Shown here: in pieces, positions 1 to 53,493 of the stretch
Layout of the letters: every line of letters starts with the position of its first letter
How positions within the stretch are numbered: the first letter of the stretch is position 1
Origin: Minisyncoccota bacterium
GTDB taxonomy: Bacteria; Patescibacteriota; Minisyncoccia; Phycocordibacterales; UBA9973
NCBI GenBank assembly: GCA_017991395.1
Contig: JAGOQQ010000005.1
Span: 4,726-68,725, forward strand
Length of the DNA: 64,000 nt
Direction: 5' to 3'
The notes under the pieces: generated by a model
What the model was told of the DNA's origin: nothing
The model's input: only the letters and a program-made list of their open reading frames with translations
Database searches by the model: none
Made by a program: the position numbers and the translations under genes

Positions 1-1816
1 AGATCTTTTCAGATGAAATAATCATATTCTTCAAAGAAAAATTAAACGCACCAATAGAGCTTTCAAATCTCCTGACCAATAGACGCCTCATGAATTTTGA
101 AACGTTTACCTGAGCTTGTTTTATTTGTTGAATTTTTTCTTCAGGAGAAATGCCGTCTTCTTCGTATTCTTCAACTAATTTTTTCGCAAAACCAGACCCT
201 TCTTTTAAATAACTCAAAATCTTATATCGAACACCGCGAAAACCAACACTCCTGTCTTCGGGTGAAATTTTTTCTAGAGTGTTTGCATACAAATCAAACA
301 TTTCTCCCAAATCGTATTCTAGTAATTCAGGATCCTTAACTTTTGCAAAAGATACTCCTTGTGCTTTAAGGTCTTCTTTATATTCTTCAATTTCATCCAA
401 ATCCAATCTGGAACGTCTAATGATAAGGGGTTCTATCATTTTTCTCAATTCATCGGCAATTGAGTTTAATTCCACTTTAATCTCTGTGTCTTCAGATGAA
501 TTTTTACGCAACTCTCTTCTTACAGCTTTATATCTTTTGAACAGTGCATGAAAAGACATACTTAAGTTCTCTACGGTTCTAATTGTAGATTGACCCGGAG
601 TGCTAAATAGTTTTATAAGTGCGTAAATATCTTTTGGATCATTATTAAATGGTGTTGCAGAAAGAGCCATTACATAATGCCCCGCGCAAAGTCTATGCAA
701 CATTTTATAATTTTCAGTGTCCTCATTCCGGTGTTTATGCGCTTCGTCTAGAATGAAAAGAATTTTTCCAGTATCTGAGCCATGCCTATCTAATGCTTCC
801 TGAATTTTTCCTGTTGAATAAACTAATCCCTTAAAATCAAATTCAGACATATAATCCTTCCATTGATTTTCAAGATGAGGAGGAGCGATAACAATAGTTT
901 TAAGTCCTAAATTGTGTGCTATTGCTGATGCAATAATACTTTTTCCAAGCCCCACAACATCAGCAATAATTACTCCTCCAAATTTTTTGATTCGATCTAT
1001 CCCAAGATTAATTGCATCTTTTTGATATTTAAGATCAGAAAATTTACCTCCAGTTATATGTTTTGGAGTTTTCATGTCCTCAATTTCAGTAACAGAAAAA
1101 TACTCACTAAGTACTTTGTAATACATTAAGAGAGGATCTGGGAGAGAATAAAGCCATATTTTACTTTTTATCTCTTTTATAAAATTATCTGAAGACTCAA
1201 TATCAGTTATTGTTATATTATTTTCATCGTTCCAGTGATCTTCAAAATACGTAACCTGTTTATCATAATGGTGATTTTCTTCCAAAAGAATATTGAACTC
1301 TCTCTGTCCTTTTAAACCAGACTCACTAAGGTTACTGGATCCAATAACGACATATCCTTTTTGACCATCAGACGTATCAATTTTATTTAAAATATAAAAT
1401 TTTGAGTGATCTGGCTCAGCTGTCTTCTTAATTTGTAAACTACCATCTTTTATTTTGTCCAAAAAAATTTCAAACGCTTTTTGAGATTCTTCATTATCGA
1501 AGTAGTCCGTATCATTAAAGATTTGAGAAAAAGTATCTATATAGTCAGTTTTTGCTCCGGCACGAGAAGAAATATTTGTTTCAACCACATTAGAATCAAA
1601 ATTTAAATCTTTTAATACGGAAACTTTATCAATGATCTTCTTATCAATATCCATTCCAACTAAAATTCGGATTTGCTTGTCTTTTAATTCATTATGTAAA
1701 TCTTTAAATCCAGAAAAGTAGAAATAACCAACCAAGGCATCAATTTTGTCGCACTTTGGCAAAATTGATTTTAAGTTAGATGAAAGTGTATTTGTTCCAG
1801 TGTTTGTTATTGCCAT
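1..1816 (-). CDS. PLD-like (HKD) nuclease domain fused to SNF2-family helicase N-terminal domain. The gene is partial and its C-terminal part runs off the window start.
   Basis: Manual reverse translation from the ATG at 1816-1814. The N-terminal part has an HxK(x)4D(x)6GSxN motif (HSKFYILNKIDTSDGQKGYVVIGSSNLS). Further in are SNF2 motif I (DVVGLGKS), a DEAH box (LDEAHKHRNE) and motif III (LSATP). The reading frame stays open to position 1. The ORF is not in the supplied track because it is truncated by the window edge. Confidence 0.75.
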   Translation of the reverse strand, partial: MAITNTGTNTLSSNLKSILPKCDKIDALVGYFYFSGFKDLHNELKDKQIRILVGMDIDKKIIDKVSVLKDLNFDSNVVETNISSRAGAKTDYIDTFSQIFNDTDYFDNEESQKAFEIFLDKIKDGSLQIKKTAEPDHSKFYILNKIDTSDGQKGYVVIGSSNLSESGLKGQREFNILLEENHHYDKQVTYFEDHWNDENNITITDIESSDNFIKEIKSKIWLYSLPDPLLMYYKVLSEYFSVTEIEDMKTPKHITGGKFSDLKYQKDAINLGIDRIKKFGGVIIADVVGLGKSIIASAIAHNLGLKTIVIAPPHLENQWKDYMSEFDFKGLVYSTGKIQEALDRHGSDTGKILFILDEAHKHRNEDTENYKMLHRLCAGHYVMALSATPFNNDPKDIYALIKLFSTPGQSTIRTVENLSMSFHALFKRYKAVRRELRKNSSEDTEIKVELNSIADELRKMIEPLIIRRSRLDLDEIEEYKEDLKAQGVSFAKVKDPELLEYDLGEMFDLYANTLEKISPEDRSVGFRGVRYKILSYLKEGSGFAKKLVEEYEEDGISPEEKIQQIKQAQVNVSKFMRRLLVRRFESSIGAFNFSLKNMIISSEKI

Positions 1817-1820
1817 AAAT

Positions 1821-2042
1821 TTATTTCAAAAGTTCGCTACTGGAAATCCCAAGCGCTTTAGAAATTTTTTCTAAAGTTGAAAGAGTAGGATTCATTCGAC
1901 CATTTTCAATGTTGCTGATATATGCTCTATCAACACTCAAAGCGTTCGCAAGGTCTACTTGCGACATGTTTTTTTTCAAACGCCATTTTCTTAGGTTTTC
2001 CCCAAGTTTCTTTCCGGATGACATAAATGGATTATATTCCAA
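1821..2042 (-). CDS. XRE-family helix-turn-helix transcriptional regulator
   Basis: The sequence MSQVDLANALSVDRAYISNIENGRMNPTLSTLEKISKALG is a typical Cro/C1-type HTH. The stop codon lies 4 nt before the ATG of the downstream PLD-SNF2 gene. The likely true start is the internal Met at 2024, which is leaderless with respect to the -10 at 2031-2036. Confidence 0.8.
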   Translation of the reverse strand: MEYNPFMSSGKKLGENLRKWRLKKNMSQVDLANALSVDRAYISNIENGRMNPTLSTLEKISKALGISSSELLK

Positions 2043-2072
2043 GTTGCATCACATTACAACGTGTAATATAAT
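2031..2072. promoter_or_regulatory. Divergent promoter pair with a palindromic operator
   Basis: The plus-strand promoter is TTGCAT (2044-2049), a 17-nt spacer, then TATAAT (2067-2072). The minus-strand promoter is TTGTAA (rc of 2054-2059), a 17-nt spacer, then TATAAT (rc of 2031-2036), ending 7 nt before the Met codon at 2024. The palindrome ATTACA-acg-TGTAAT (2053-2067) sits inside both spacers and is the probable XRE operator. Confidence 0.55.
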
Positions 2073-2079
2073 TCACATA

Positions 2080-2445
2080 GGGCATGTCCGCCCCGAATTT
2101 CGCCAAAAGAAAACGGATGGAGCAAGCGGAGGATTCCTCCCCAGACCCCTTCTCCTCCGCTTGCGAAATCCGAAATTAGCCGAGGTTTTGCGGAAACCAT
2201 ATCCCCAGAAAAATGCTTCCGCAAAACCGAGTCCGCATTGTATTCGTGCTTCCGTCCTTTTCCTTTTGGAAAAGCTCTGTGCTTCGCACAGAGGCGCTTC
2301 AGCGCAACGGATGCACGAGATTAGTCACTTTGCCGTTCGAAAAAAGTTCGAGCAAAGTGTACGATTAGAGCACTAAAACAGTAGTAAAAAGAAATGGTGA
2401 GATGTATCTGTATTTACCTCCTCTCCTAGACAGGAGAGGATTGAG
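2080..2445 (+). ncRNA. Candidate structured leader or ncRNA. It is GC-rich relative to its surroundings and has nested stems. The class is unknown.
   Basis: It lies downstream of the plus-strand promoter. There is a perfect 11-bp stem gcaagcggagg (2122-2132) with cctccgcttgc (2153-2163), nested inside cgaatttcgc...gcgaaatccg. A 12-bp stem joins ggttttgcggaa (2183-2194) with ttccgcaaaacc (2217-2228). An 8-bp stem joins ctctgtgc with gcacagag (2275-2293). The terminal hairpin cctctcct-agac-aggagagg (2421-2440) contains the RBS for the GTG start at 2446. I recognised no known riboswitch consensus. Confidence 0.35.
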
Positions 2446-2854
2446 GTGAGGTTGATTGTACATTCCATGAATAGAATAATTAACAACTCAAATAGAAAAA
2501 GTTTTCGTAAAGAGTTGCGGAAAAATCAAACTCCGCAAGAAATTATTTTATGGTCTAAGGTACGAAATAATCAAACTGGTTTTAAATGGCGCCGACAAGT
2601 AAGTATCGGCTCATATATTGCTGATTTTTACTGTAAGGAAAAATTCTTGGTAATAGAAATTGATGGTTCACAACACGAAGATGCTAAGCTTTATGACAAG
2701 CAAAGGGAGAAATTTTTTCAAAATTTAGGAATTAAAACTCTTCGCTTTTGGAACAACGAAATAAATACCAACATCGAAGGTGTGATGCTTAAAATTTATT
2801 CCGAATTATCAAATACACTACCTCACCCCAACCCTCTCCTGGCAAGGAGAGGGG
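2417..2854 (+). mobile_element. DUF559 ORF bracketed by ~35-bp hairpin-containing terminal inverted repeats. It may be a small selfish element.
   Basis: The left repeat is CCTCCTCTCCTAGACAGGAGAGGATTGAGGTGAGG (2417-2451). The reverse complement of the right repeat (2821-2854) is CCCTCTCCTTGCCAGGAGAGGGTTGGGGTGAGG. The two differ only in the loop and a few spacer bases. Confidence 0.35.
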
Positions 2855-2883
2855 GCACCCAAAAACTCAACACACCAAAATGA
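2446..2883 (+). CDS. DUF559 endonuclease-domain protein with a Vsr-like fold
   Basis: It contains FLVIEIDGSQHED ... LGIKTLRFWNNEI, a typical DUF559 core. It starts with GTG after the RBS AGGAGAGG. Its stop overlaps the miaA ATG (ATGA). The C-terminal 20 aa are encoded by the right inverted repeat. Confidence 0.65.
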   Translation: MRLIVHSMNRIINNSNRKSFRKELRKNQTPQEIILWSKVRNNQTGFKWRRQVSIGSYIADFYCKEKFLVIEIDGSQHEDAKLYDKQREKFFQNLGIKTLRFWNNEINTNIEGVMLKIYSELSNTLPHPNPLLARRGGTQKLNTPK

Positions 2884-3740
2884 AAGAAAAAGAACTCAAT
2901 CAAAAACCCAAAATCATCGTCGTCTGTGGACCTACCGCCACAGGCAAAAGCGACTATGCGGTCACTCTCGCCAAAAAAACTTCAGGTGAGATAATTTCTG
3001 CTGATTCACGCCAAGTCTACAAAGGACTTGATATTGGTAGTGGGAAAATAACAAAAAAAGAAATGCGTGGTGTTCCCCATCACCTTCTTGATGTTGTCTC
3101 ACCAAAAAAAGTTTTCACTGTCGAGCAATTTCAAAAACTCGGAAAGAAAGCAATTTCCAATATTTTGAAAAAAGGCAAAACTCCTATCATCTGCGGTGGA
3201 ACTGGATTTTATATTGACGCTCTAGTGTATGAATCAAACTTCCCTGCCGTTCCGCCAAACAAATCACTTCGTACACAACTTGAGAAAAAATCTGTTGAAG
3301 AATTGTTTGAACTTGTACAAGAAAAAGATCCAGAGCGCGCAGATACTATCGACAGCAAAAACAAAGTGCGACTCATTCGCGCACTTGAAATAATTGATGC
3401 TATAGGAAAAGTGCCTAATGTCAAAAAAGAATCTACATATGATGTGGAGTGGATTGGACTAGATTTCCCCGACGAAATTCTCAAGGAACGAATTCACAAC
3501 AGACTTCTCGCACGAATTAAAAAAGGAATGCTCAAAGAAGCACACAATTTGCATACACAAGGTCTCTCATGGAAAAGAATGCGTGAACTTGGACTCGAAT
3601 ATCGATTTATGGCAGATTACCTCACAGGAAAAATATCGAAAGATGAAATGATAACACTACTCGAAACGGCAATCTGGCAGTACGCAAAAAGACAGAGGAC
3701 TTGGTTTAAGAGGAACAAGGAGATACGGTGGGTGAAATAG
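2880..3740 (+). CDS. miaA: tRNA dimethylallyltransferase
   Basis: The P-loop is IIVVCGPTATGKS. The motifs SADSRQVYKGLDIGSGK and ICGGTGFYIDAL match MiaA. Confidence 0.9.
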   Translation: MKEKELNQKPKIIVVCGPTATGKSDYAVTLAKKTSGEIISADSRQVYKGLDIGSGKITKKEMRGVPHHLLDVVSPKKVFTVEQFQKLGKKAISNILKKGKTPIICGGTGFYIDALVYESNFPAVPPNKSLRTQLEKKSVEELFELVQEKDPERADTIDSKNKVRLIRALEIIDAIGKVPNVKKESTYDVEWIGLDFPDEILKERIHNRLLARIKKGMLKEAHNLHTQGLSWKRMRELGLEYRFMADYLTGKISKDEMITLLETAIWQYAKRQRTWFKRNKEIRWVK

Positions 3741-3838
3741 AATTAGTTTTTTGACAAAAAATTCTTTTTATGTATAATAAATACTGCCTAACTCTTGGGG
3801 CATAATACCAAGAATTCGTTCATTTAAATTTAATAATA

Positions 3839-4717
3839 ATGATTCAAAAAATCAGAGAAACACAGAAAACCCATCTTCTAAACATGTTTGGAAATGTGAT
3901 TGATGCTCAATCCCTCACCAAGGATGAGGCACAAGTAATTATTACTCATGGCAATCAGTTGAAGGAAGACTTATTTAAGACTACAAAAGATTTTGTTCAA
4001 AGAGCTTTGTGGCAAGGAAATAACTATCCTAAAGATTATCGCCGTAAGCCAGTTGAACGTCAGGTAAACATTTTAGCCTCAGTTTTTGATTTATCAACTG
4101 ATGAAACAATGAAGTTTGTTACAGAACGATTACCTAACATTAAACTGCCCCGCCATGCCGAAGGATGGTTCGCAATTCCCTCTATCGAAGCTGTTGCGAA
4201 AAAACATTTTCCACAGGTAACAGGTGATATTGATCAGTATCGTGAATGTATTCGATTTGTTTGTAAAAAAGTTAAAGACACACGAGTATTTAGCGATTAC
4301 GGTTTGGGGTACTTCAATCATCATTCGTTCATGGAAAGACCAAAATCTTTAAACGCTTTTGGTTGGATGGGTGGACAAAAGGGAGAAATTATTATTATTC
4401 CTGCACAATTAGGAATGCGCTACCAAGGAAAGTCTATTAATGATGCTTTACAAGCATTCAGAAAAGAAGAATTTCCACTTGGAATGTTTGAAGTGCTTTC
4501 AATTCTCCTTACTCATCCTAAACGATTAGGAATTTATTCCGGTCTTGGTATGACATGTGCAGACAACGCTATATCAAACGATGGAGTTCCTAAGTATCCT
4601 CATTTTTGGATGGATTCAACAGAGCCTTCTTGGGGTGATAGAATAAACTTTCAAAACAGATTGAATGGTTATGACACACAACCTTATTATGCTGTCCTTT
4701 CTGGATTTAAATTTTAA
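3839..4717 (+). CDS. hypothetical protein
   Basis: It is a 292-aa ORF with coding-like composition. I recognised no motif. Confidence 0.5.
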   Translation: MIQKIRETQKTHLLNMFGNVIDAQSLTKDEAQVIITHGNQLKEDLFKTTKDFVQRALWQGNNYPKDYRRKPVERQVNILASVFDLSTDETMKFVTERLPNIKLPRHAEGWFAIPSIEAVAKKHFPQVTGDIDQYRECIRFVCKKVKDTRVFSDYGLGYFNHHSFMERPKSLNAFGWMGGQKGEIIIIPAQLGMRYQGKSINDALQAFRKEEFPLGMFEVLSILLTHPKRLGIYSGLGMTCADNAISNDGVPKYPHFWMDSTEPSWGDRINFQNRLNGYDTQPYYAVLSGFKF

Positions 4718-4736
4718 TTGAATTTAAACTTTTATA

Positions 4737-4766
4737 CCGCTTGCATTTTGCAGGCGGTATTTTTAT
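4737..4766 (+). terminator. rho-independent terminator
   Basis: The hairpin is ccgcttgc-atttt-gcaggcgg, followed by a T-run. Confidence 0.6.
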
Positions 4767-4822
4767 TTCTCAATTTAATATTATGGTAAAAGTATCTAAA
4801 AACGCTACTTTTTCACATCTAC

Positions 4823-5020
4823 GGAGGATGAAGGAATCTTTCCTTGCAGGAACAGTATACCTTTTCGGTGGAGATGAAGGAATCGGTCACAAGTCTTTTT
4901 CTACTGAAAAAGCTCGCGACCCCGCCTCCCGCCGTCGCGGTCCGGCTTTCGATTCCTTCATCCCTCTCGCAATGATGATACAAAAAGACAGAGCGTTTAG
5001 CTCTGCCTTTTTGTTCATTG
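4823..5020. repeat. Array of tRNA-Trp 3'-end-derived fragments joined to conserved element-end sequences
   Basis: GGAGGATGAAGGAATC (4823-4838) is a direct copy of the tRNA-Trp acceptor and T-arm up to the T-loop. It is followed by the 29-mer TTTCCTTGCAGGAACAGTATACCTTTTCG (4839-4867), which recurs at 50578-50606. A second copy GGAGATGAAGGAATCG (4870-4885) is followed by GTCACAAG..TTTTTCT. An inverted partial copy lies at 4947-4965. Confidence 0.6.
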
Positions 5021-5091
5021 CGGGGGATGAAGGAATCGAACCCTCACCAAAGGTTTTGGAGACCTTCGTTCTACCACTAAACTAATCCCCC
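5021..5091 (-). tRNA. tRNA-Trp (anticodon CCA)
   Basis: Manual fold: acceptor gggggat/atccccc, anticodon stem aaggt/acctt, loop ctCCAaa, T-arm gaggg-ttcgatt-ccttc. CCA is not encoded. Confidence 0.8.
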
Positions 5092-5261
5092 ATCTCCGCC
5101 ACAAGGGCGGACGACGCGAATGCCCAGCAAAATAATAATTATGCGGGATCACTTTCCTAAACTAAAGTGTTAGGACTAGAAAGAACATATAACAAAAAAG
5201 AAAAAGGAATCCCTTTTCTTTTTTGCAGTTCTAGTATAGCAAACCTTTCAATAGTAAGAAA

Positions 5262-5423
5262 CTATTTCTTTGCTTCCTTGTGAACAGTGTTTTTCTTACA
5301 CCATTTGCAGTACTTTTTGAGCTCGATCTTTTTTGTAACGAGCTTCTTATTTTTACTTGACCAGTAGTTGATTCTTTTACAACTTCCGCAGGCAAGCTTT
5401 ATCAATCTGTCTTGTGATGCCAT
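5262..5423 (-). CDS. rpmG: 50S ribosomal protein L33
   Basis: The 53-aa product is MASQDRLIKLACGSCKRINYWSSKNKKLVTKKIELKKYCKWCKKNTVHKEAKK, with a Cys4 zinc ribbon and the conserved KYC..C..HTVHKE motif. It is under 60 aa and so is missing from the ORF track. Confidence 0.8.
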   Translation of the reverse strand: MASQDRLIKLACGSCKRINYWSSKNKKLVTKKIELKKYCKWCKKNTVHKEAKK

Positions 5424-5517
5424 AGTGGGTATACAATACTATAATTTGTTTAAAAATGCAAGGATATATTATGGACAAAAGTGCAATAAAATGCTATTTT
5501 ATTTAGGTGTAAAGTAT

Positions 5518-5600
5518 GCGTCGGTGGTAGAGTGGTCAATTACAACAGACTGTAAATCTGTCGGCTTCGGCCTACGTAGGTTCAAATCCTACCCGGCGCA
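5518..5600 (+). tRNA. tRNA-Tyr (anticodon GTA)
   Basis: The acceptor is gcgtcgg/ccggcgc with one G-U pair. The anticodon loop is ctGTAaa. It has a long variable arm and the T-arm gtagg-ttcaaat-cctac. Confidence 0.8.
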
Positions 5601-5604
5601 CAAT

Positions 5605-5655
5605 AAAAATCCCCGTAAGGGGATTTTTTTGACGGGTAGGATTTGAACCGAAGGT
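5605..5655 (+). terminator. Terminator hairpin followed by an inverted copy of the tRNA-Tyr 3' end
   Basis: The hairpin atccccgtaaggggat plus a T-run lies at 5609-5630. It is followed by gacgggtaggatttgaacc (5632-5650), which is the rc of the T-arm and acceptor region of tRNA-Tyr and ends inside the T-loop. Confidence 0.6.
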
Positions 5656-5784
5656 GCCAATTTTTAATGAGCTTGCGTAGTATAAGCGATTGCTAAAAAT
5701 TGAGCATCTCGACTGAAAGGAGAGGCAAATCCTAATAATATATAAAAAATGAGCTACTGTTTTTTAAACAATAGCTCATTATAT

Positions 5785-6381
5785 TTAAAAGATTAAATCT
5801 CTTTTTTCTTTCAACAAATACTCAAACAATACAGCTCGAGTTCTATCTTCAGAAAATTTACGCTCAAGTAAAAGTTTAAATACTTCTTTGTACGTCATCT
5901 CAACAATTTCGATTCTTTCATCATCTTCAGGTCGAGGTTTTCCTTTCTGAAATTCTTCAACAAGATAATAATGCAAATCATGCTCAACGGTAGCAGACGA
6001 AGGAGAAACATAAAAAGGCTTCAGCCTTTCAATAAAAATACCAATCTCTTCTTTTGCTTCACGAATAATCGCATCACGAAGCATGTATTCATTCCCAGAA
6101 TTATCTGATCCGTCTTTTTCAAGAAAATCAAGATACTCACAAAGATTGTCGGCGACCTTTCCTCCAGTCAACCGATAATCCCACGGTTGATCAAGATATT
6201 CCCTTTTTTCTTTTTGAAAAATTAATCCTGTTTCTGTAGGAATTATTGCTCTTACCCCGGGAGATCTCCGGAAATATTCCTTGCCTTTTTCATTCTGAAG
6301 AACTTGTCCAATTTTTCCGTTAAACACAGGACTATATCCGTCGCGTGCATCAATTGCATAATTAATTGGTTTTATTTTCAT
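5785..6381 (-). CDS. NUDIX hydrolase
   Basis: It carries a Nudix box-like sequence, GGKV...E...LRDAIIREAKEEIGI. Confidence 0.6.
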   Translation of the reverse strand: MKIKPINYAIDARDGYSPVFNGKIGQVLQNEKGKEYFRRSPGVRAIIPTETGLIFQKEKREYLDQPWDYRLTGGKVADNLCEYLDFLEKDGSDNSGNEYMLRDAIIREAKEEIGIFIERLKPFYVSPSSATVEHDLHYYLVEEFQKGKPRPEDDERIEIVEMTYKEVFKLLLERKFSEDRTRAVLFEYLLKEKRDLIF

Positions 6382-6548
6382 AGTTATTATTTTTAAATAT
6401 TATATATAATTTTAAATATTTGTCAATATTATAAAATTGATTAGCAAACACTTTACATAAGTGTTTTCATGATACCAACTATGTAGCGCTTTGACTTCTT
6501 TGTTATTGACAGGAACTTTAAATATGTTATTATTGTGAAAAACCGAAC

Positions 6549-9862: not shown

Positions 9863-10600
9863 CTACAACCCAAACGTATTTTTCAATTCAGCACCGAAAA
9901 TAACGAGTCCTGTGGTGTCTGTGGCAAGTAATACTCCGAGTGCTTTTCCCTCTTTGTTGACCACGAGTGCGCCTGACTTCATTTGTGGAATAGATGTAAG
10001 CTCTATTCTGGTTCCATAGCCGTCATCTGGCGAGACTGTTTTGACATATACTTTGTCAAACGAAAGAGGATTGCCTTCAATGACGTAAAGCTCATCCCCT
10101 GAAACTGGAGTAGGTGCGTCAAATGTGACAAATTTTTCTGAAGTGATTTTCTTTGATGATTCAAAAAAAGTGATTCGCTCAAGGCTTGAAGACGCGGGGA
10201 TTTTTTGTTCAACACCTGCAACAAGTGAAGCGTATTCCTTTTTTAACTCAATCAACGTTCCTTCACTTATGTACGAGAGCAACTTCCCTTTCGACACCAT
10301 TACGAGTGGGCGAGAAAGTGTCTTTGTGTCATCAAGATATAGTATGCCTACAGAATCCTTGTATTTTGCAACAATATCCGAAGCCGAAAGCGGTGCGGGC
10401 ACAACTGGTATTTCTGGTGTCACCGGTGCAGGATTTGGGTTAAATGTATCTTTGACGACTTGATAGATAGTCTGCGTCACCGGGACTGAACGTTGTTCCA
10501 TGACAGACACTACAGCAATTGCCGTGACAATTGCGGTGACAAAACTTATAAGAAGTCCAAGTAAAATTAATTGTGTTTTTGTAAGATCATTAATATCCAT
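9863..10600 (-). CDS. Hypothetical membrane-anchored protein. Its C-terminal region weakly resembles a trypsin-like peptidase.
   Basis: It has an N-terminal TM segment. MKSGALVVNKEGKALGVL resembles GNSGGPLVN..G.VIGI. The track ORF extends to 10651, but an internal Met start at 10600 avoids overlap with iscS. Confidence 0.4.
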   Translation of the reverse strand: MDINDLTKTQLILLGLLISFVTAIVTAIAVVSVMEQRSVPVTQTIYQVVKDTFNPNPAPVTPEIPVVPAPLSASDIVAKYKDSVGILYLDDTKTLSRPLVMVSKGKLLSYISEGTLIELKKEYASLVAGVEQKIPASSSLERITFFESSKKITSEKFVTFDAPTPVSGDELYVIEGNPLSFDKVYVKTVSPDDGYGTRIELTSIPQMKSGALVVNKEGKALGVLLATDTTGLVIFGAELKNTFGL

Positions 10601-10610
10601 ACTATTAGTT

Positions 10611-11864
10611 CTAACGATTTTTTGCCAAAATCGTGATTGATTGATTTGCAAGATCGACTACATCGCGAAGCGCACGAACAAAGTACACCAAATCTTTTTT
10701 TTCTGTCTGTCGTCCGAGTGTTATTCGCAAGCTACCATCTTCAGGTTTAATTTCTTTCGATAGTGCCATTATAACATGAGACGTGTGTTCGTCTAACGCA
10801 TTGCATGCACTTTTTGAGGATACACGAACACCTTTTGCATCAAGTCCAATCACGAGTGCGTCACTTTCGATTCCATGAAATGTAAAATTGATATTGTTTG
10901 GAAGTCGCAGTGTCTCATGACCATTGAGCTCGGCACCTGGAAACTCTTTTCGAATTTCTTTAATCAAAAAATCTCGAAGTATCGTCAGTCGCTTCACTTC
11001 CTTTTCTTTTATTTTTTCAGCAAGCAAAAGTGCCTGCGCAAAACCAAGTATTCCTGGAATATTTTCTGTTCCTGGTCTTACATCAAATTCTTGTTCACCA
11101 CCTTTCATTATTCCTGAAAATGGAAGTCCGCGTTTTTTGTAGAGCATTCCAACACCTTTTGGACCGTAAATCTTTGAACCATTACAACTAAGCATATCTA
11201 CTCCCAAAGGTGGGACTCGAAGTGGCAAATAATTCACGGCTTGTGTGGCATCTGTGTGGAAAACTGGATACGGTCCAGAAATTTCATTATGCTTTTTGAA
11301 ATGTCGAATTGCTTTTGCAATTTCCGAAATCGGCTGGATTGTACCAATCTCATTGTTTGCATACATCACCGAAACAAAAATCGTATCCTTGGTCAGTGCA
11401 TCGCGGACATCTTTTGGATTTACTATTCCGTCTTTGTCGACAGGAATAAGAGTGACATTGACACCACTTGATCTTATAAACTTTGCAGATTCAAAAAGCG
11501 CTGAATGTTCGATTGCAGAAATAATGATATGTGGATTCTTTGTGGTTTCTTTTGATTTCAGCAAATATCCTTCGAGTATTCCACTAATCGCCATATTGTC
11601 GCTTTCAGTTCCACTTCCGCAAAAAATAATCTCATCCGAATGCACATCAAACACACCCGCCACATCTTTGCGGGCTCTAGTCAGGGCTTCTTTTGCACGA
11701 AGTCCATCTTTGTGCAATGCACTTGGATTGCCAAAATACACCTCACTCGCTTTTTTAACGACTGAAATGACCGACGGATCAATGGGTGTATTTGATGCAT
11801 AATCAAGATATACACTTTTTTCGATTTTCTTTGATTTTGTTGTTTTTCGTGTGGTTGTTGCCAT
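10611..11864 (-). CDS. iscS: cysteine desulfurase (class V aminotransferase; IscS/NifS family)
   Basis: It contains SGTESDNMAI, HTDATQA and the active-site region SCNGSKIYGPKGVGMLY. Confidence 0.85.
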   Translation of the reverse strand: MATTTRKTTKSKKIEKSVYLDYASNTPIDPSVISVVKKASEVYFGNPSALHKDGLRAKEALTRARKDVAGVFDVHSDEIIFCGSGTESDNMAISGILEGYLLKSKETTKNPHIIISAIEHSALFESAKFIRSSGVNVTLIPVDKDGIVNPKDVRDALTKDTIFVSVMYANNEIGTIQPISEIAKAIRHFKKHNEISGPYPVFHTDATQAVNYLPLRVPPLGVDMLSCNGSKIYGPKGVGMLYKKRGLPFSGIMKGGEQEFDVRPGTENIPGILGFAQALLLAEKIKEKEVKRLTILRDFLIKEIRKEFPGAELNGHETLRLPNNINFTFHGIESDALVIGLDAKGVRVSSKSACNALDEHTSHVIMALSKEIKPEDGSLRITLGRQTEKKDLVYFVRALRDVVDLANQSITILAKNR

Positions 11865-15493: not shown

Positions 15494-15678
15494 GAGGTGG
15501 GACTCGGTCACGAATATTTTTCTCGCCGTCGCTTGAAAAATTTCTCTACCCCAGCTCGGTATTTTATTCTGGTGAACAAAATATACCTGCGCTTTTAGAG
15601 TCCCACACGTACGCAAAAAACTTTGCGTACTCTCGGGCACATATTAAAATAACCACCATTGGTGGTTATTTTAATATG
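15494..15678. repeat. tRNA-Leu(TAA) 3'-fragment with element-end sequences and a 27-bp-arm palindrome
   Basis: GAGGTGGGACTCG (15494-15507) is a direct copy of the tRNA 3' part up to the T-loop and is followed by GTCACGAATATTTTTCT. The palindrome ctcgggcacatattaaaataaccacca/tggtggttattttaatatgtgcccgag (15631-15686) incorporates the tRNA acceptor end. Confidence 0.55.
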
Positions 15679-16042: not shown

Positions 16043-16468
16043 CACGAATTAAAAAGAAGAACTTCTTCTTGTTTTTAGTTCGTGTCCAAGCCGCAGTAAT
16101 GTTTTTGTTTGAGCGAAGCGAAAGGCAAAAACCACGAGGCGGGCTCGCGAAATTTTTACGTCAGTAAAAATATTTGTGAGGACACGTAGTAGCAAGAACT
16201 TCTTCTTGTTTTTAGTTCGTGTCCAAGCCGCAGCGATGTTTTTGTTTGAGCAAAGCGAAAGGCAAAAACCGCGAGGCGGGTGAGAAAGTGTGGGACACTT
16301 TCGCAAGACCTTTTGAGAATTTTTGTGAGCGAGCGAAACAAAAAGTCCAAAAGGTGTACAGAATCTGTAAGATTCGCGAAATTTTTACGTCAGTAAAAAT
16401 ATTTGTGAGGACACGTAGTAGCAAGAACTTCTTCTTGTTTTTAATTTAAAAAAAGATAGTAACAATAT
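16043..16468. repeat. Tandem ~140-bp direct repeats (about 2.5 copies) with hairpin modules between two tRNA genes
   Basis: aagaacttcttcttgttttta occurs three times (16063-, 16203-, 16420-). gttcgtgtccaagccgcag..gtttttgtttgagc.aagcgaaaggcaaaaacc.cgaggcggg occurs twice. cgcgaaatttttacgtcagtaaaaatatttgtgaggacacgtagtagcaag occurs twice. The first hairpin pairs with the tRNA-Lys 3' end (tggacacgaa / ttcgtgtcca). Confidence 0.7.
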
Positions 16469-16550: not shown

Positions 16551-16976
16551 CAACGAAAAATAATGAACCCAATGCGAGAGCATTGGGTGATTTATTTTTA
16601 TGCTCGGGAGAGGACTTGAAAGCCGGAGGCGGTATACAAGACGCAGCGAAGCGAAGTGCTTGTCGCCGAGGCGGGGTCGCGAGTACTTAGTAGAATTTGA
16701 GCTGGCGAAAAATTATACTTAGTAACTCGTGACCAAGACACTGCTTGGCTTGCGCGAGAGGACTTGAAAAGGTTCTCCCATATTTTTGTGAGCCTGCGAA
16801 CAAAAATGGGAAACCTGTACTGCTCCTGTAAGGAGAAAATCCTCTCCTGGACACTATCCCAAATTCTCGTGACCAAGTCCCCTCCCGACGACCACTGAAA
16901 TTATACTTAGTAACCTGTGACCAAGACATCCCAATACGCAAATTAAAAACACCCGAACTCACGTACGGGTGTAAAT
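16551..16976. repeat. Non-coding repeat region carrying inverted T-loop-truncated copies of the tRNA-Leu(TAG) 3' end and other short repeats
   Basis: The terminator hairpin cccaatgcgagagcattggg is followed by gctcgggagaggacttgaa (16601-16619), the rc of the T-arm and acceptor. A second copy gcgagaggacttgaa lies at 16755-16769. attatacttagtaac.tgtgaccaagaca occurs twice (16713-, 16897-). Confidence 0.55.
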
Positions 16977-42829: not shown

Positions 42830-43053
42830 ACGCGAACCTAACGCTGACAGATACATTCACAGTCTTTAGTGTTTAGTTGTTAGTCTTTAGTGAATTTCTG
42901 TATTGTGTCATCCTGAACTTGTTTCAGGAACTCAAGGTTTTTAATTCATTCTTACCCCTCTGCCCTTCGGGCACCTCCCCTCAAGGGGAGGCTTCATACA
43001 TCCGCGTCCATCTGCGTAAAGTCAGCGTTTAGTCTGCGTTAGTTCGCGTCTTA
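42830..43053. repeat. mosaic intergenic repeat block
   Basis: It holds a TCCGCG-type 11-bp array (42811-42850), an ACTAAAGACTN 11-bp array (42859-42893) and the hairpin gtgtcatcctgaacttgtttcagga (42905-42933). It also holds the hairpins gcccttcgggc and cctcccctcaaggggagg (42975-42992) and a second GCG 11-bp array (43009-43053). Confidence 0.75.
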
Positions 43054-50503: not shown

Positions 50504-50880
50504 GGGTGAATGATATCACGAAAATACAGGACTCTCGACTACCGTCGCGGGTACTTCACTTATTTAGTACAGGACTCTTTCCTTACAGGAACAGTATACC
50601 TTTTCGATTTTCTCAGAGCACAGCTCTTCGTAAATAGCGAAAAGCTTTTCGAGTCCTGACGCAGAGTCTCCCAGACTCTGCTTACGGTCCACGCAAGAAA
50701 AAAGGCCTAACAAAAGTTAGGCTCTTTTTTCAAAGTGTGGACTTCTCTACACAAGAATTGAATCAACAGGATGATACCAAAAAGAGCTATAAATGGCCTA
50801 ATGTCCTGCCTAGAAACTTAGAAGAGGAAGAGTTATTCTGGAAACAGGTATATGATGATGTAATAGAGTTAGCATCGATA

Positions 50881-51708
50881 CTAAGAGGAGAGTAATTTTG
50901 TCATTTTGATTTTTAAGGACACTAAACCATCTTTAAAGATAAAGTCACCATACAAACACCAATTAGTTCCTTGTATGGCATTTTGTATCGTGGTACGGAC
51001 AACTTGAAGAGATTGTGTTTCTCCTCTCACACTCAAATCCAATGTTTTTATTATAAACGTTGTCTCTTTGCAATAGGGTTTTTCAATACAACTTATCCTT
51101 GTGTAGTTCTGATTAATTAGTACCCTGTTCAGTCTTTTCTTAATTTTAAATATTGAAAGTTGTTCAACTTTTGTTTCTTGAGGTGAAAGTTTTTTAGGTC
51201 CAAGAATATCTGCAAGTATTAAAATATCATCATAAACTTTTTCCCAAAACTTCCCAATGTGCACACAAGGATCATCATCTTTTATACAGTACTTTTCCCT
51301 GTCAGCTTCTTTGATCTTTTTTCTCTTTCTTAATTTATATGGTTTTTCATCTTCAGATTCACGAGGTGGCACCCATTCAGAACCATCATTATATAGTGCA
51401 CGCTTTGGAAGATGTCCCTCTAGGCACGAATAGAAAATGAGTACTCTTCCTTCATCTACAATTTTAGAAGTTGCTCTCATTCTTCTTTTGCATTGGAGAC
51501 AGTATATATCTTCGGGAATAACAGTTCTAGATAAGAGGAGAGCTTTTTGAGCAAGTCGTTCTCTTACAAGCTTCAAGTAAGTAGGTTTGGCTTTCCACCT
51601 TTGATACAAATAGGAACTTTGCTTAATGTGTTTCTTTTTCTTTGCGAAAATTATAGTTTGGGAATCATATAAATCATTGAGATATTTTTCTTCTTGTTGC
51701 ATATACAA
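50881..51708 (-). CDS. hypothetical protein (island cargo), with a possible Zn-ribbon-like CxxC...C..H element
   Basis: It is a 275-aa ORF. It contains YCLQCKRRM...FYSCLEGH. It is lysine-rich. It has its own upstream region. Confidence 0.45.
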   Translation of the reverse strand: MYMQQEEKYLNDLYDSQTIIFAKKKKHIKQSSYLYQRWKAKPTYLKLVRERLAQKALLLSRTVIPEDIYCLQCKRRMRATSKIVDEGRVLIFYSCLEGHLPKRALYNDGSEWVPPRESEDEKPYKLRKRKKIKEADREKYCIKDDDPCVHIGKFWEKVYDDILILADILGPKKLSPQETKVEQLSIFKIKKRLNRVLINQNYTRISCIEKPYCKETTFIIKTLDLSVRGETQSLQVVRTTIQNAIQGTNWCLYGDFIFKDGLVSLKIKMTKLLSS

Positions 51709-51904
51709 ATGATTCAGTATATACCGAAAAGAGATTACTTATATTTTATTGTATAAACATATCAGAAACGAGTACTTTTAGTTTTCCACAATTATTTATA
51801 CGCAATTCACATTTCAAATAAAGTGTGTTATATTATATATATCTCATCTACCCATGGTAGAAGGAGCAAAGAGGCCGTTACCCTATGGGTAGCGGCCTCG
51901 GTCA

Positions 51905-52408
51905 TTATGGATTAAATTTCATAAAGTTTGAATACTCCTTCTGAAGTTTCTTTTTGTCATGTTTATACACAATTGGATAGGCCGTCCATGGCAAAATATA
52001 ATTTTTTCGCTTATTTAAAACAACTAAATATTCCCAATCTCCAAAACAAAGACATATTCTATACTGAATGCCCTTTTTGGTATTTCTTTGATTCTCCCAC
52101 ATTTTCACATTATTCACATTACTGCTATTTTCGATTATTGGTTTTGGCCACTTAATTCGCTCGCATCTTGATTCATCTAAGTTTCTTTGAAGTTCTGGAA
52201 CTTTTCCAGAAGTTGTCATATGCCAGAAAGTTGCTGCCTTGCCTTCAATTAGAGGATATTTTTTCAACCCTAACTTATTACCATTATATATTGGTCTTGA
52301 TTCAATAAAATCTTGTACAAAAGATTTGTAAACCGCATCAACAAAATCATCCCAATTGCTAGAATGGTGAATAAGTAATATAAGGTCTGGTAAGGTTAAG
52401 CTGCTCAT
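51905..52408 (-). CDS. hypothetical protein (island cargo), downstream partner of the DUF3800 gene
   Basis: The ORF starts 8 nt after the DUF3800 stop at the Met in MSSLTLPDL. The track ORF extends to 52447. A terminator hairpin, ggccgctacccatagggtaacggcc, follows it. Confidence 0.45.
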   Translation of the reverse strand: MSSLTLPDLILLIHHSSNWDDFVDAVYKSFVQDFIESRPIYNGNKLGLKKYPLIEGKAATFWHMTTSGKVPELQRNLDESRCERIKWPKPIIENSSNVNNVKMWENQRNTKKGIQYRICLCFGDWEYLVVLNKRKNYILPWTAYPIVYKHDKKKLQKEYSNFMKFNP

Positions 52409-52416
52409 CAATAAAA

Positions 52417-53130
52417 CTACTCGGGTGAATAAAATGAAGGCTCCCAAAAGAATATGTTAAATTTCTCCTCTCTCACCAATGTCGACTTTTCAAGAGAATA
52501 CCCGGATCGTTCTTCGATTCTTTTAATTAAGATTTTCTTGGCTTCGCTTTTTCTTTCACTTCTTTGGGAATATGAAATTGCACCTATTAAAAGATCTGTT
52601 AGTTGCATAATTCCTGTTTCGTTGGATCTTATAATTTGTGTCTTTTTAATGATTTTATTATCGAAATCATACATCGAATTAGAAAGAATATTATGTAATT
52701 CCTTTACTTTTGATCCACCCTTTGTATCCTTAATATCCAAGTAAATATTATATTTAGAATCCGGACTTAAAATCACTTTTAACATATTAAAATATGTTTT
52801 GTAATAGAAAACATCATGTGTTTGTTTATATTGAATGTGATTAAGTTTGTTTTTGTCTTTTATCACCACAATACGAAAATGTAAGTCATCATTATCAAAG
52901 AAGTAATCAATGAGGTCTAAATAAAATTCTTTTTTCACAGTGGAAACTTTGGTCCACTTAATTTCGAAAACGGGGTTAAAATTATGTCGAATTTTTATCT
53001 CCTTGATTCTAGAGTTAATTTCTCTGATTTTCTCTTTAGGACACCAAATAGCACCAAGTACCATGTGTTTTTGGTGATCATTCTCCAAGTGACAACTTTC
53101 ATCACAATAAATATTGTATAAGTTTCCCAT
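52417..53130 (-). CDS. DUF3800-like protein (island cargo)
   Basis: The N-terminal motif NIYCDESCH resembles the conserved (I/L)Y.DESG start of DUF3800 proteins. It is 237 aa. Confidence 0.45.
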   Translation of the reverse strand: MGNLYNIYCDESCHLENDHQKHMVLGAIWCPKEKIREINSRIKEIKIRHNFNPVFEIKWTKVSTVKKEFYLDLIDYFFDNDDLHFRIVVIKDKNKLNHIQYKQTHDVFYYKTYFNMLKVILSPDSKYNIYLDIKDTKGGSKVKELHNILSNSMYDFDNKIIKKTQIIRSNETGIMQLTDLLIGAISYSQRSERKSEAKKILIKRIEERSGYSLEKSTLVREEKFNIFFWEPSFYSPE

Positions 53131-53224
53131 GAGGTGATTATACCACCTTCATTTGATTTAAATAAAATTACTTAAAACTATTTTAAATCACTATTTTTAG
53201 AATTTCCAAACGGACCTTGTCAAG

Positions 53225-53257
53225 ACAGGAAAAAGAGCTATTTCTAGCTCTTTTTTG
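53225..53257 (-). terminator. terminator hairpin immediately 3' of tRNA-Ala
   Basis: On the minus strand it reads agagctagaaatagctct plus a T-run. It is similar to the hairpin acagagcgtttagctctg plus T-run just 3' of tRNA-Trp (4995-5019). Confidence 0.55.
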
Positions 53258-53330
53258 TGGACCGTACAGGACTCGAACCTGCCACCCCATCATTGCAAAT
53301 GATGTGCTCTACCAGATGAGCTAACGGCCC
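53258..53330 (-). tRNA. tRNA-Ala (anticodon TGC)
   Basis: The acceptor is gggccgt/acggtcc. The D-arm is gctc-atctggta-gagc. The anticodon stem catca/tgatg has loop ttTGCaa. The T-arm is gcagg-ttcgagt-cctgt. Confidence 0.8.
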
Positions 53331-53493
53331 AGAATTTAATTTCAAACTTTATCTTTCCTCCCCTCTTTCACGATACACCACAGACGAGGTTGGGAGGTAA
53401 GGCATTGAAATCCACCCCAATAGTATACCCATATTTATATTTTTTGCAATATATATACACCCTCATCAATACTGCTCATGATATACTATTTAT

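Follow-up and report, generated by a model that had tools for sequence, protein, structure and literature searches.

A candidate family of structured RNA elements just 3' of tRNA genes in Patescibacteria

Six of the seven tRNA genes in a 64-kb stretch of a Minisyncoccota contig (JAGOQQ010000005.1; this whole stretch is referred to below as the window) are followed by short modules in which a conserved core is enclosed between an inverted and a direct copy of part of the tRNA gene itself. We believe that these modules probably, though far from certainly, represent a Patescibacteria-wide and undescribed family of modular structured RNA elements that lie on the same strand as, and just 3' of, tRNA and transfer-messenger RNA (tmRNA) genes. 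The modules share one anatomy, fold into a three-way junction with covarying helices, and are under selection on one strand; they are linked to tRNA and tmRNA-like 3' ends with a junction at tRNA position C56, are retained vertically, and show duplication at the DNA level. Their location argues for what may be a cis role on the 3' flanks of tRNA precursors or a role as a released stable RNA. An initial annotation of the window had read the same repeats as traces of an integrative element targeting the tRNA T-loop, and that interpretation is partly supported by the results below.

Architecture of the modules in the window

ARAGORN and Rfam agree on seven tRNAs in the window (Trp, Tyr, Leu-TAA, Cys, Lys, Leu-TAG, and Ala), and modules follow all of them except Cys; Leu-TAA begins 17 nucleotides (nt) past Cys. 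The initial annotation had recognized the phenomenon but counted five affected tRNAs instead of six, since tRNA-Lys also has modules (16088-16415). There are one to several modules per tRNA, which together occupy roughly 100 to 370 nt per locus. Reading each locus in the orientation of its tRNA, we found a hairpin (usually terminator-like) after the tRNA and then at least one module made up of three parts, which we call alpha, core, and sigma. Alpha is an inverted copy of tRNA nt 54-65, comprising the T-loop and the 3' strand of the T-stem, and is sometimes extended to nt 73; in some modules, a conserved extra hairpin (P0) sits at the acceptor/T-stem boundary of alpha. Sigma repeats the tRNA in direct orientation, beginning at T-loop C56 and running approximately to the 3' end. 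Because alpha and sigma pair as a closing helix (P1), each module is fitted to its own tRNA.

The core occurs in different types. Core1 consists of (G)AA-AGCCGGA, a hairpin, GAGGCGGGG-UCGCGAG, a second hairpin, and A-CUYGUGAC. Its helix P2 is a GCC/GGC stem with a GGA/GA internal loop, and its helix P3 pairs GUCGCGAG with CUYGUGAC and includes a nearly invariant G.U pair. Core2 consists of GAAAA, a hairpin, GUAYACUG, and the hairpin NNNN-UGUAA-NNNN. After some tRNAs, we also observed a third core type, CAGCGGA, a hairpin, and GAGCUGG-UGCCCAGAC..GUCGAGGGAGA (L288 4690-4820; L282 5060-5190, minus strand; L-numbers denote related loci outside the window), and a ..AAGCGUACUCGC.. motif recurs behind some core1 copies (L173, L178, L188, L194, and L216).

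The tRNA and module features of the window are listed below, with bit scores from R1, a covariance model of core1 built from 20 sequences.

5020-5091, minus strand: tRNA-Trp(CCA), whose nt 56-73 are the template for the downstream copies
4982-5012, minus strand: terminator-like hairpin past tRNA-Trp, AAAAAGGCAGAGC..GCTCTGTCTTTTT
4950-4966, minus strand: Trp alpha, tRNA-Trp nt 56-72 inverted, 5' strand of closing helix P1
4886-4947, minus strand: Trp core1 and three-way junction (R1 80.1 bits, E 5e-19; fold -56.1 kcal/mol, z -7.3)
4870-4885, minus strand: Trp sigma1, tRNA-Trp nt 56-71 direct, 3' strand of P1
4839-4867, minus strand: 29-mer, the 3' part of core2, with junction GUAUACUG and hairpin UUCC-UGCAA-GGAA
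4823-4838, minus strand: Trp sigma2, second direct copy, tRNA-Trp nt 57-72
5518-5601, plus strand: tRNA-Tyr, followed by a terminator at 5605-5630, both preceding the Tyr module
5633-5734, plus strand: Tyr module, with inverted copy 5633-5649, an unclassified or decayed interior, and a short direct CAAATCCTA at 5726-5734 (fold z -2.8; no R1 match)
15494-15639, minus strand: Leu-TAA module, with acceptor antisense 15632-15639, P0 hairpin 15607-15631, T-arm antisense 15598-15606, a diverged core1 at 15507-15597 (P2 compensated to AGC/GCU), and sigma 15494-15506 (R1 36 bits, E 1e-7; fold z -5.1)
16043-16415, plus strand: Lys modules, with a terminator hairpin at 16043-16087 reaching into the tRNA 3' end, core1 at 16088-16180, and, at 16181-16415, a repeated hairpin and then a composite core1 with an inserted core2-like domain (R1 58.7, 22.6, and 19.7 bits, the last two being partial copies)
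16602-16927, plus strand: Leu-TAG modules, with alpha1 16602-16618, core1 16619-16733 (R1 60.7 bits), alpha2 16756-16766, core2 16767-16838, sigma 16839-16847, CUCGUGAC and a sigma at 16866-16889, and a duplicated P3 3' half at 16901-16927
53257-53330, minus strand: tRNA-Ala(UGC), followed by a terminator-like hairpin at 53230-53256
50524-50692, minus strand: Ala module, with acceptor antisense 50683-50692, P0 hairpin 50659-50682, T-arm antisense 50650-50658, core2 50578-50649 (containing the 29-mer), sigma1 50567-50577, and sigma2 50524-50536

In the Trp module, core1 runs in the order AGCCGGA, hairpin, GAGGCGGGG, TCGCGAG, hairpin, CUUGUGAC, and it includes both GTCACAA..TTTTTCT and CCGTCGCG. 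The Lys P1 (CGUGUCC/GGACACG) is derived from the tRNA 3' end and trailer.

All repeats reported in the initial annotation exist at the positions given, and none is expected by chance apart from an expectation of 0.29 for ACAGGACTC. GATGAAGGAATC occurs four times: inside tRNA-Trp, directly at 4827 and 4873, and inverted at 4951. GAGGTGGGACTCG is found at 15494 and within tRNA-Leu(TAA), with a third match at 11207 that has one mismatch, and ACAGGACTC is found at 50526, at 50569, and within tRNA-Ala, with an unrelated fourth match at 9905. The two copies of the 29-mer (4839-4867 and 50578-50606), which lie 45 kb apart at the Trp and Ala loci, differ solely at the R position. The reported truncation within the T-loop was also confirmed: the window copies stop there, and in the wider set described below, the first base of sigma is C56 in 49 of 55 scorable cases. 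Likewise, a conserved non-tRNA sequence does abut the tRNA copies, and the junction at position 56 is sharp and general; what did not hold was the description of these sequences as element ends or attachment (att) arms. GTCACRA..TTTTTCT is the reverse complement of the core1 P3 3' strand, and the 29-mer is the 3' part of core2 (hairpin and junction). The motif CCGTCGCG, said to recur at 4940, 15523, and 50542, is the antisense (reverse complement) of a CGCGACGG stem-loop with a GACG loop, and its copy at 15523 matches only 7 of 8 bases.

Each module orientation had been half described. Minus-strand tRNAs do have direct copies, as annotated, but their inverted copies had been missed (Trp 4950-4966; Leu-TAA 15598-15606 and 15632-15639; Ala 50650-50658 and 50683-50692). 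Conversely, the inverted copies at plus-strand Tyr and Leu-TAG were correctly recognized while the direct copies were overlooked (Leu-TAG 16839-16847 and within 16866-16889; a weak copy at Tyr, 5726-5734). The AGAGC..GCTCT hairpins, which had been placed ahead of the tRNAs, lie downstream of them and are terminator-like.

Single-sequence folds gave a three-way junction closed by the alpha:sigma helix, with z scores between -2.6 and -7.3 (Trp the lowest; the others -2.6 to -5.1). P1 is mostly 6-11 bp long and is followed by a 3-nt GAA that is also antisense of T54-T55-C56. Where the T-stem has a G.U pair, alpha shows the Watson-Crick complement in four of five usable cases, so alpha is better read as an inverted copy than as a relic of the tRNA's own 5' strand. 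In comparison with a kink-turn, the P2 internal loop (GCC-GGA..GA-GGC) permits tandem G.A pairs, but its bulge is only 1 nt and a GCAG..CGA variant lacks these pairs. A mimic of the tRNA top half was rejected on the P1 length of mostly 6-11 bp, with acceptor antisense present in only a minority of modules.

Covariation, distribution, and inheritance

We measured covariation on a 112-sequence alignment of core1 (A2). Paired cells amounted to 95.8% versus 73.4% in shuffled alignments, cells with changes on both sides numbered 446 versus 125, and the covariation score was 0.538 versus 0.03-0.08 when the pairing partners were slid. Of 111 sequences, 109 have G.U at one P3 pair, and a second P3 pair is either G.U or G-C. 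On the opposite strand, these G.U pairs would be A.C mismatches, which indicates selection on the tRNA-sense single strand, and the selected molecule is most likely RNA. Among 38 pattern hits for the core2 hairpin, 16 have stems that are complementary throughout (10 distinct stem sequences), whereas we estimate that about 2% would be expected.

Scanning the genome collection with GAGGCGGGNTCGCGA returned many chance matches in GC-rich genomes. Among the low-GC matches, about 17 loci had a full core1, including the independent flanks AGCCGGA and CUYGUGAC, and these were mostly labeled Patescibacteria, Saccharibacteria, Nomurabacteria, or Paceibacterota. The window itself belongs to a Patescibacterium, in line with a neighboring protein at 87% identity that is named 'Patescibacteria group bacterium'. 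Beyond the window, R1 matched 25 times in genome loci and 112 times across 100 metagenome loci. A regular-expression census gave 131 core1 instances, 86 of which have an upstream tRNA on the same strand; 80 of these 86 lie within 150 nt of the tRNA (the usual spacing being 15-150 nt), and 30 tRNA species are involved. About 15 of the remaining instances are at contig ends, several other copies follow putative tmRNA 3' ends (..GGGTTCGATTCCCGCCATCTCCACA) that were identified by eye and not by a tmRNA tool, and a few follow terminators of protein genes. The initial annotation had allowed that the conserved sequences might be absent from other tRNA loci; core1 recurs at more than 130 Patescibacteria loci, most of them tRNA-adjacent.

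Across this set, direct repeats have a median of 20 nt, and the units measure 119-248 nt (median 161 nt) and contain no gene. At its longest, 87 nt, the direct repeat also takes in the trailer hairpin and alpha, so that the entire unit is in effect duplicated in tandem; tandem units are present at L043, L053, and L168, and there are one to about four units per tRNA. A minority class is templated on the extreme tRNA 3' end and trailer, not on the T-loop (window Lys, L031, L054, and L116). Three sigma copies have CCA though the gene lacks it, and several others have CC. Because the duplicated tRNA segment often extends past the tRNA end into the trailer, we conclude that copying took place at the DNA level.

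As the initial annotation had supposed, the family appears to be undescribed: it matches no Rfam family and no paper in the literature that we searched, where we found no description of the motif. In a scan of the whole window against Rfam 15, only tRNA passed its gathering threshold, and E-value scans of three module regions (E up to 10 for Trp/Tyr and up to 0.5 for the others) gave no family beyond tRNA. The only Rfam hit covering a module was a weak one to HCV_J7880 over the Trp core1, at 18 bits versus a gathering threshold of 90, and a few microRNA and small RNA hits far below threshold touch module edges. Of 33 viral contigs containing the 15-mer, just one had the motif, and that contig resembles a piece of a candidate phyla radiation (CPR) chromosome.

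An all-against-all BLAST for strain pairs provided one useful pair, L231/L255, in which the tRNA-Ala(GGC) loci are orthologous and the upstream flanks share about 85% identity. Between the two, the tRNA and the core1 junction nucleotides are identical, P0, P2a, and the distal P3 stems differ by several compensatory changes, and synteny stops directly after sigma. A second relative, L288, is syntenic with the window (UvrC, Ddl, a PAS-like gene, tRNA-Ala, ogt, DUF179, and a sigma factor). Its tRNA-Ala is identical to that of the window and is followed directly by two tandem modules, without the 2.7-kb islet that lies 3' of the window tRNA-Ala; in the second module, core2 including the 29-mer is nearly identical to window 50578-50649. 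Since L288 has modules without the islet, the modules are resident and the islet in the window is a later insertion. Looking for empty sites in relatives, we saw modules kept in both L288 and L231/L255, and only the islet was missing, in L288. In L282, a module occupies the spacer of a Val-Arg operon with no terminator, and it must therefore be co-transcribed with the tRNAs there. The variable stems of the four window core1 copies all differ from one another, so those copies are old. At the Trp and Ala loci, a comparison of population variants found every contig examined to be either identical or to end inside the repeats.

Competing explanations for the modules

If the modules are structured RNA elements, they would share a transcript with the tRNA, whether because they lie in operon spacers or because transcription reads through the hairpin. 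The transcribed module could then influence the processing or stability of the precursor by acting in cis on its 3' flank, or it could be released as a stable RNA. No dedicated recombinase would be needed for new copies: fold-back combined with template switching, at the terminator hairpin and the conserved T-loop sequence, might produce alpha, sigma, and the C56 junction together in a single event. The Trp and Ala copies of the 29-mer are nearly identical while the tRNA-derived parts differ, which points to recent copying between loci with re-joining at position 56/57.

We were concerned that several observations weigh against this explanation. A hairpin with a T-run resembling an intrinsic terminator stands ahead of 52 of 79 modules, which means that transcription may be low, and no promoter-like site was found ahead of the Trp module. 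Single-stranded DNA (ssDNA) recombination sites also use conserved G.T wobbles and bulges, so RNA as the selected molecule is likely but not proven. Sigma, with its median of 20 nt, usually exceeds what a P1 of 6-11 bp needs. A variant that we call E_b, UGA-[GAACUGCC..GGCAGUUC]-GCAA-GGCCGGA..AUCGUGAC, sits in direct continuity inside partial tRNA copies. Taken together, the long sigma, the continuity of E_b, and the near-identity of the two 29-mer copies suggest that insertion is an active process, for which template switching is a conjecture.

E_b is a circular permutation of the core junction, in which a loop closes P1 and the termini fall between P3 and P1. It is found in the D-loop (L033, L261, and L016), at position 26/27 (L221), and in the T-loop (L242, L226, and L251, the last with two inserts), and each E_b-bearing partial copy has an intact copy of the same tRNA immediately downstream. 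The E_b junctions are short by 1-3 nt and the acceptor 3' strand is gone; these are thus not clean introns.

Such features could reflect a non-autonomous mobile element that spreads through a single-stranded intermediate, either of the ssDNA hairpin kind (IS200/IS605, repetitive extragenic palindromic [REP] sequences, attC) or an intron-like RNA entering the T- or D-loop, with the fold conserved because the mobility machinery requires it. We regard this as possible but unlikely. It would accommodate the strand-specific fold with a bulged A and G.T(U) wobbles in P3, the exact 55/56 T-loop junction across many tRNAs, the presence of E_b in the D-loop, at 26/27, or in the T-loop of partial copies beside an intact copy, the circular permutation of the same junction in E_b, and the recent copying of the 29-mer between Trp and Ala. 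However, the modules have no linked transposase, reverse transcriptase, or endonuclease, E_b lacks the clean junctions of an intron (1-3 nt are missing), and the variable stems of the window cores all differ, so most copies are old. Retention at orthologous loci under structural selection suits a host function, and modules occur in both orientations within one GC-skew domain. Group II introns, moreover, are reported to be absent from Patescibacteria (PMC13011429).

Tentatively, and with little confidence, we also considered that the cores might be a new protein-independent or host-enzyme-dependent mobile RNA that inserts at 55/56 of any tRNA or tmRNA, with the D-loop and 26/27 as side targets, and brings or copies a replacement 3' segment, or else a released RNA that acts through its acceptor-strand tail. 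If true, a mobile RNA targeting the T-loop would be a bacterial analogue of mobile tRNA introns in which the host gene survives, and a released RNA with a free acceptor-strand tail (sometimes with CCA) would be a natural mimic of the tRNA 3' part or an external-guide-like RNA.

The integration proposed in the initial annotation corresponds to miniature integrative elements, where a tyrosine or serine recombinase encoded elsewhere inserts small circles bearing a tRNA 3' part at a T-loop attB, so that the tRNA stays intact and a displaced fragment of its 3' end lies beyond the element. The geometry fits (tRNA, unit, and a direct repeat from the T-loop to the 3' end), as do the tandem units at L043, L053, and L168 and the CCA in three sigma copies whose gene has none, and tRNA 3' flanks are insertion hot spots, as seen from the defense islet in the window and from an HNH gene in L288 and L287. 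Still, we consider this explanation improbable. It would require a tRNA-specific attP for each unit, across 30 tRNA species and tmRNA-like ends, in units of 119-248 nt that are cargo-free in about 80 of 86 cases. The supposed ends are helix strands that covary and include a nearly invariant G.U, the inverted tRNA copy in each unit is left unexplained, orthologous sites retain their modules with compensatory changes, and there is essentially no viral association. We found no integrase, transposase, or recombinase domain in 22 different window open reading frames (ORFs) tested, including those of the islet; the recombinase is thus absent from the tested ORFs, as the initial annotation said, whereas recombinase-driven integration itself was not borne out.

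Decayed tandem tRNA pseudogenes with a T-loop insertion, where alpha would be what remains of the acceptor and T-stem 5' strands, make a quite improbable origin. A hairpin lies exactly at the acceptor/T-stem boundary of alpha (window Ala and Leu-TAA; L282, L129, and L090), and partial tRNA copies bearing E_b do exist. Yet alpha also pairs with T-loop nt 54-60, as a tRNA 5' strand would not, it has the complement and not the tRNA's own base at four of five G.U positions, and the boundary hairpin is itself conserved (..CAAA-CUGC-UUUG..CGU) with compensatory changes. Finally, terminator-like hairpins do flank the tRNAs, but ordinary terminators plus chance similarity have virtually no standing as an explanation: chance does not account for the repeats, the covarying core is present at more than 130 loci in many Patescibacteria lineages, and where the initial annotation had allowed for hairpins lacking junction conservation, we found a conserved core, covariation, and the C56 junction.

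Relation to known systems and features of the neighborhood

Work by Williams in 2002 is said to have sorted the integrases of tRNA- and tmRNA-gene-targeting islands and prophages into sublocation classes, with crossover in the T-loop among them. Like these islands and prophages, the modules show an intact tRNA followed by a 3' repeat that starts in the T-loop, tandem arrangement, and tmRNA-like ends. Tandem ssrA islands figure in an account of Dehalococcoides (PMC3146451). The modules are unlike tRNA-targeting islands in their size of 120-250 nt, their lack of integrase and cargo, their inverted copy, their covarying core, their range over 30 tRNA species, and their vertical retention.

Archaea have non-canonical mobile tRNA introns and split or permuted tRNA genes of the bulge-helix-bulge type. 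E_b resembles them as a small structured insert at the D- or T-loop, and there are tRNA 3' fragments with a structured leader. In contrast, the host here is bacterial, no bulge-helix-bulge is evident, 1-3 nt are missing at the junctions, E_b copies lack the acceptor 3' strand, and an intact tRNA gene is always adjacent. GOLLD and ROOL are large structured bacterial noncoding RNAs that are often tRNA-adjacent and are represented in Rfam; they share tRNA adjacency with the modules but are far larger, and their helices are not tRNA-templated. Among ssDNA sites, integron attC, CTX-phage attP, IS200/IS605 ends, and REP sequences form strand-specific imperfect hairpins with bulges and wobbles. An inverted and a direct target copy at one end are also found with integrated CTX-phage. 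The modules differ from ssDNA sites in having no associated recombinase, in their three-way junction with conserved junction nucleotides and loops, and in an orientation that follows the tRNA and not the replication strand.

Group I introns of Patescibacteria tRNA genes lie in the anticodon loop (35/36, canonical sites) and are detected by Rfam models (PMC13011429). The modules share with them the phylum and an RNA element tied to tRNA genes but differ in position and give no Rfam hit. We rejected a group I identity on the absence of a match in any Rfam scan and on the placement of the elements after tRNAs or at T/D-loops, with lengths of about 60-200 nt. TIGR-Tas systems, which occur in CPR bacteria, have 36-nt units in long regular arrays beside a Nop-domain gene (PMC12045711). 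A conserved scaffold flanked by segments matching both strands of one site is common to the modules, TIGR-Tas, and IS110 bridge RNAs; unlike in TIGR-Tas, alpha and sigma are fully complementary to each other, and there are no such arrays and no adjacent Tas-like gene. The TIGR-Tas or bridge-RNA reading was rejected, with units of 119-248 nt and no Nop domain in the scanned module-flanking ORFs. A hammerhead reading of core1 was rejected as well: the junction order fits and GAAA is present, but G5, A6, and the U-H after P2 are absent, and CUYGUGA lies within a helix, as its 3' strand, with covariation at the closing pair of that helix.

Patescibacteria have very small genomes and account for much of bacterial diversity. 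Even so, six of the seven tRNA genes in the window carry modules, which are maintained under structural selection. Neither Rfam nor the literature that we searched contains anything comparable to a tRNA-templated closing stem joined at T-loop C56. The modules could expose a new step in the handling of tRNA and tmRNA precursors in organisms with few RNases or, alternatively, a new route of element spreading through the invariant T-loop. They also fragment metagenome assemblies at tRNA loci, and because they mimic att sites, island finders that use tRNA 3'-end repeats would call false islands. Short-read contigs of this organism and of a close relative end inside tRNA-Trp or in or near the Ala module (L002-L007, L161, and L287).

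The islet downstream of tRNA-Ala falls outside the module family:

50743-53246, minus strand: AT-rich islet (GC 0.32), with the direct repeat GTCCACA(..)AAAAAAGAGC at 53247-53262 and 50721-50742

This islet had been taken for an insert of the T-loop-targeting element. Its flanking repeat, which is the extreme tRNA 3' end plus the start of the terminator, differs from the T-loop copy, and the islet is absent from L288, where modules are present. PADLOC identified a candidate PDC-M04 defense system in it (51905-53130, minus strand), with adjacent M04A (DUF3800; 52417-53130, E 3.8e-96) and M04B (51905-52447, E 4.8e-56). A further islet ORF of 275 amino acids (50881-51708, minus strand) has a CxxC..C..H stretch; it matched nothing in Pfam, PHROGs, PADLOC, or NCBIfam and had one insignificant match in the PDB (E 0.8). 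Its AlphaFold model, made with no alignment, was unusable (predicted local distance difference test score 33).

In L288, an HNH-domain gene (5051-5746) lies between the last sigma and ogt, and it is also found in L287 (1-118); the equivalent position in the window holds only about 60 nt and a second sigma. The presence of this gene in relatives versus none in the window marks the tRNA-Ala 3' flank as a variable insertion hot spot. Upstream of the L288 tRNA-Ala (4450-4575), there are three tandem copies, about 30 nt each, of CTGTAGYGCRTCGTGAAAAGCAACAAT, and the window has one related sequence, ATCGTGAAA, at 53366-53374; repeats of the CTGTAGYGCRTCGTGAAAAGCAACAAT type could be an upstream promoter element.

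Elsewhere in the window, an intergenic 19-nt inverted repeat (42830-42848 and 43021-43039) is 79% complementary, with arms 172 nt apart and TCGCGA-containing sequences nearby, and has no R1 match. On L001, a public contig of the same organism, positions 132-6541 encode a type IIG-like restriction-modification gene (MmeI/Eco57I domains) and an SNF2/PLD helicase gene, and these lie just upstream of a miaA-like gene that adjoins the Trp locus.

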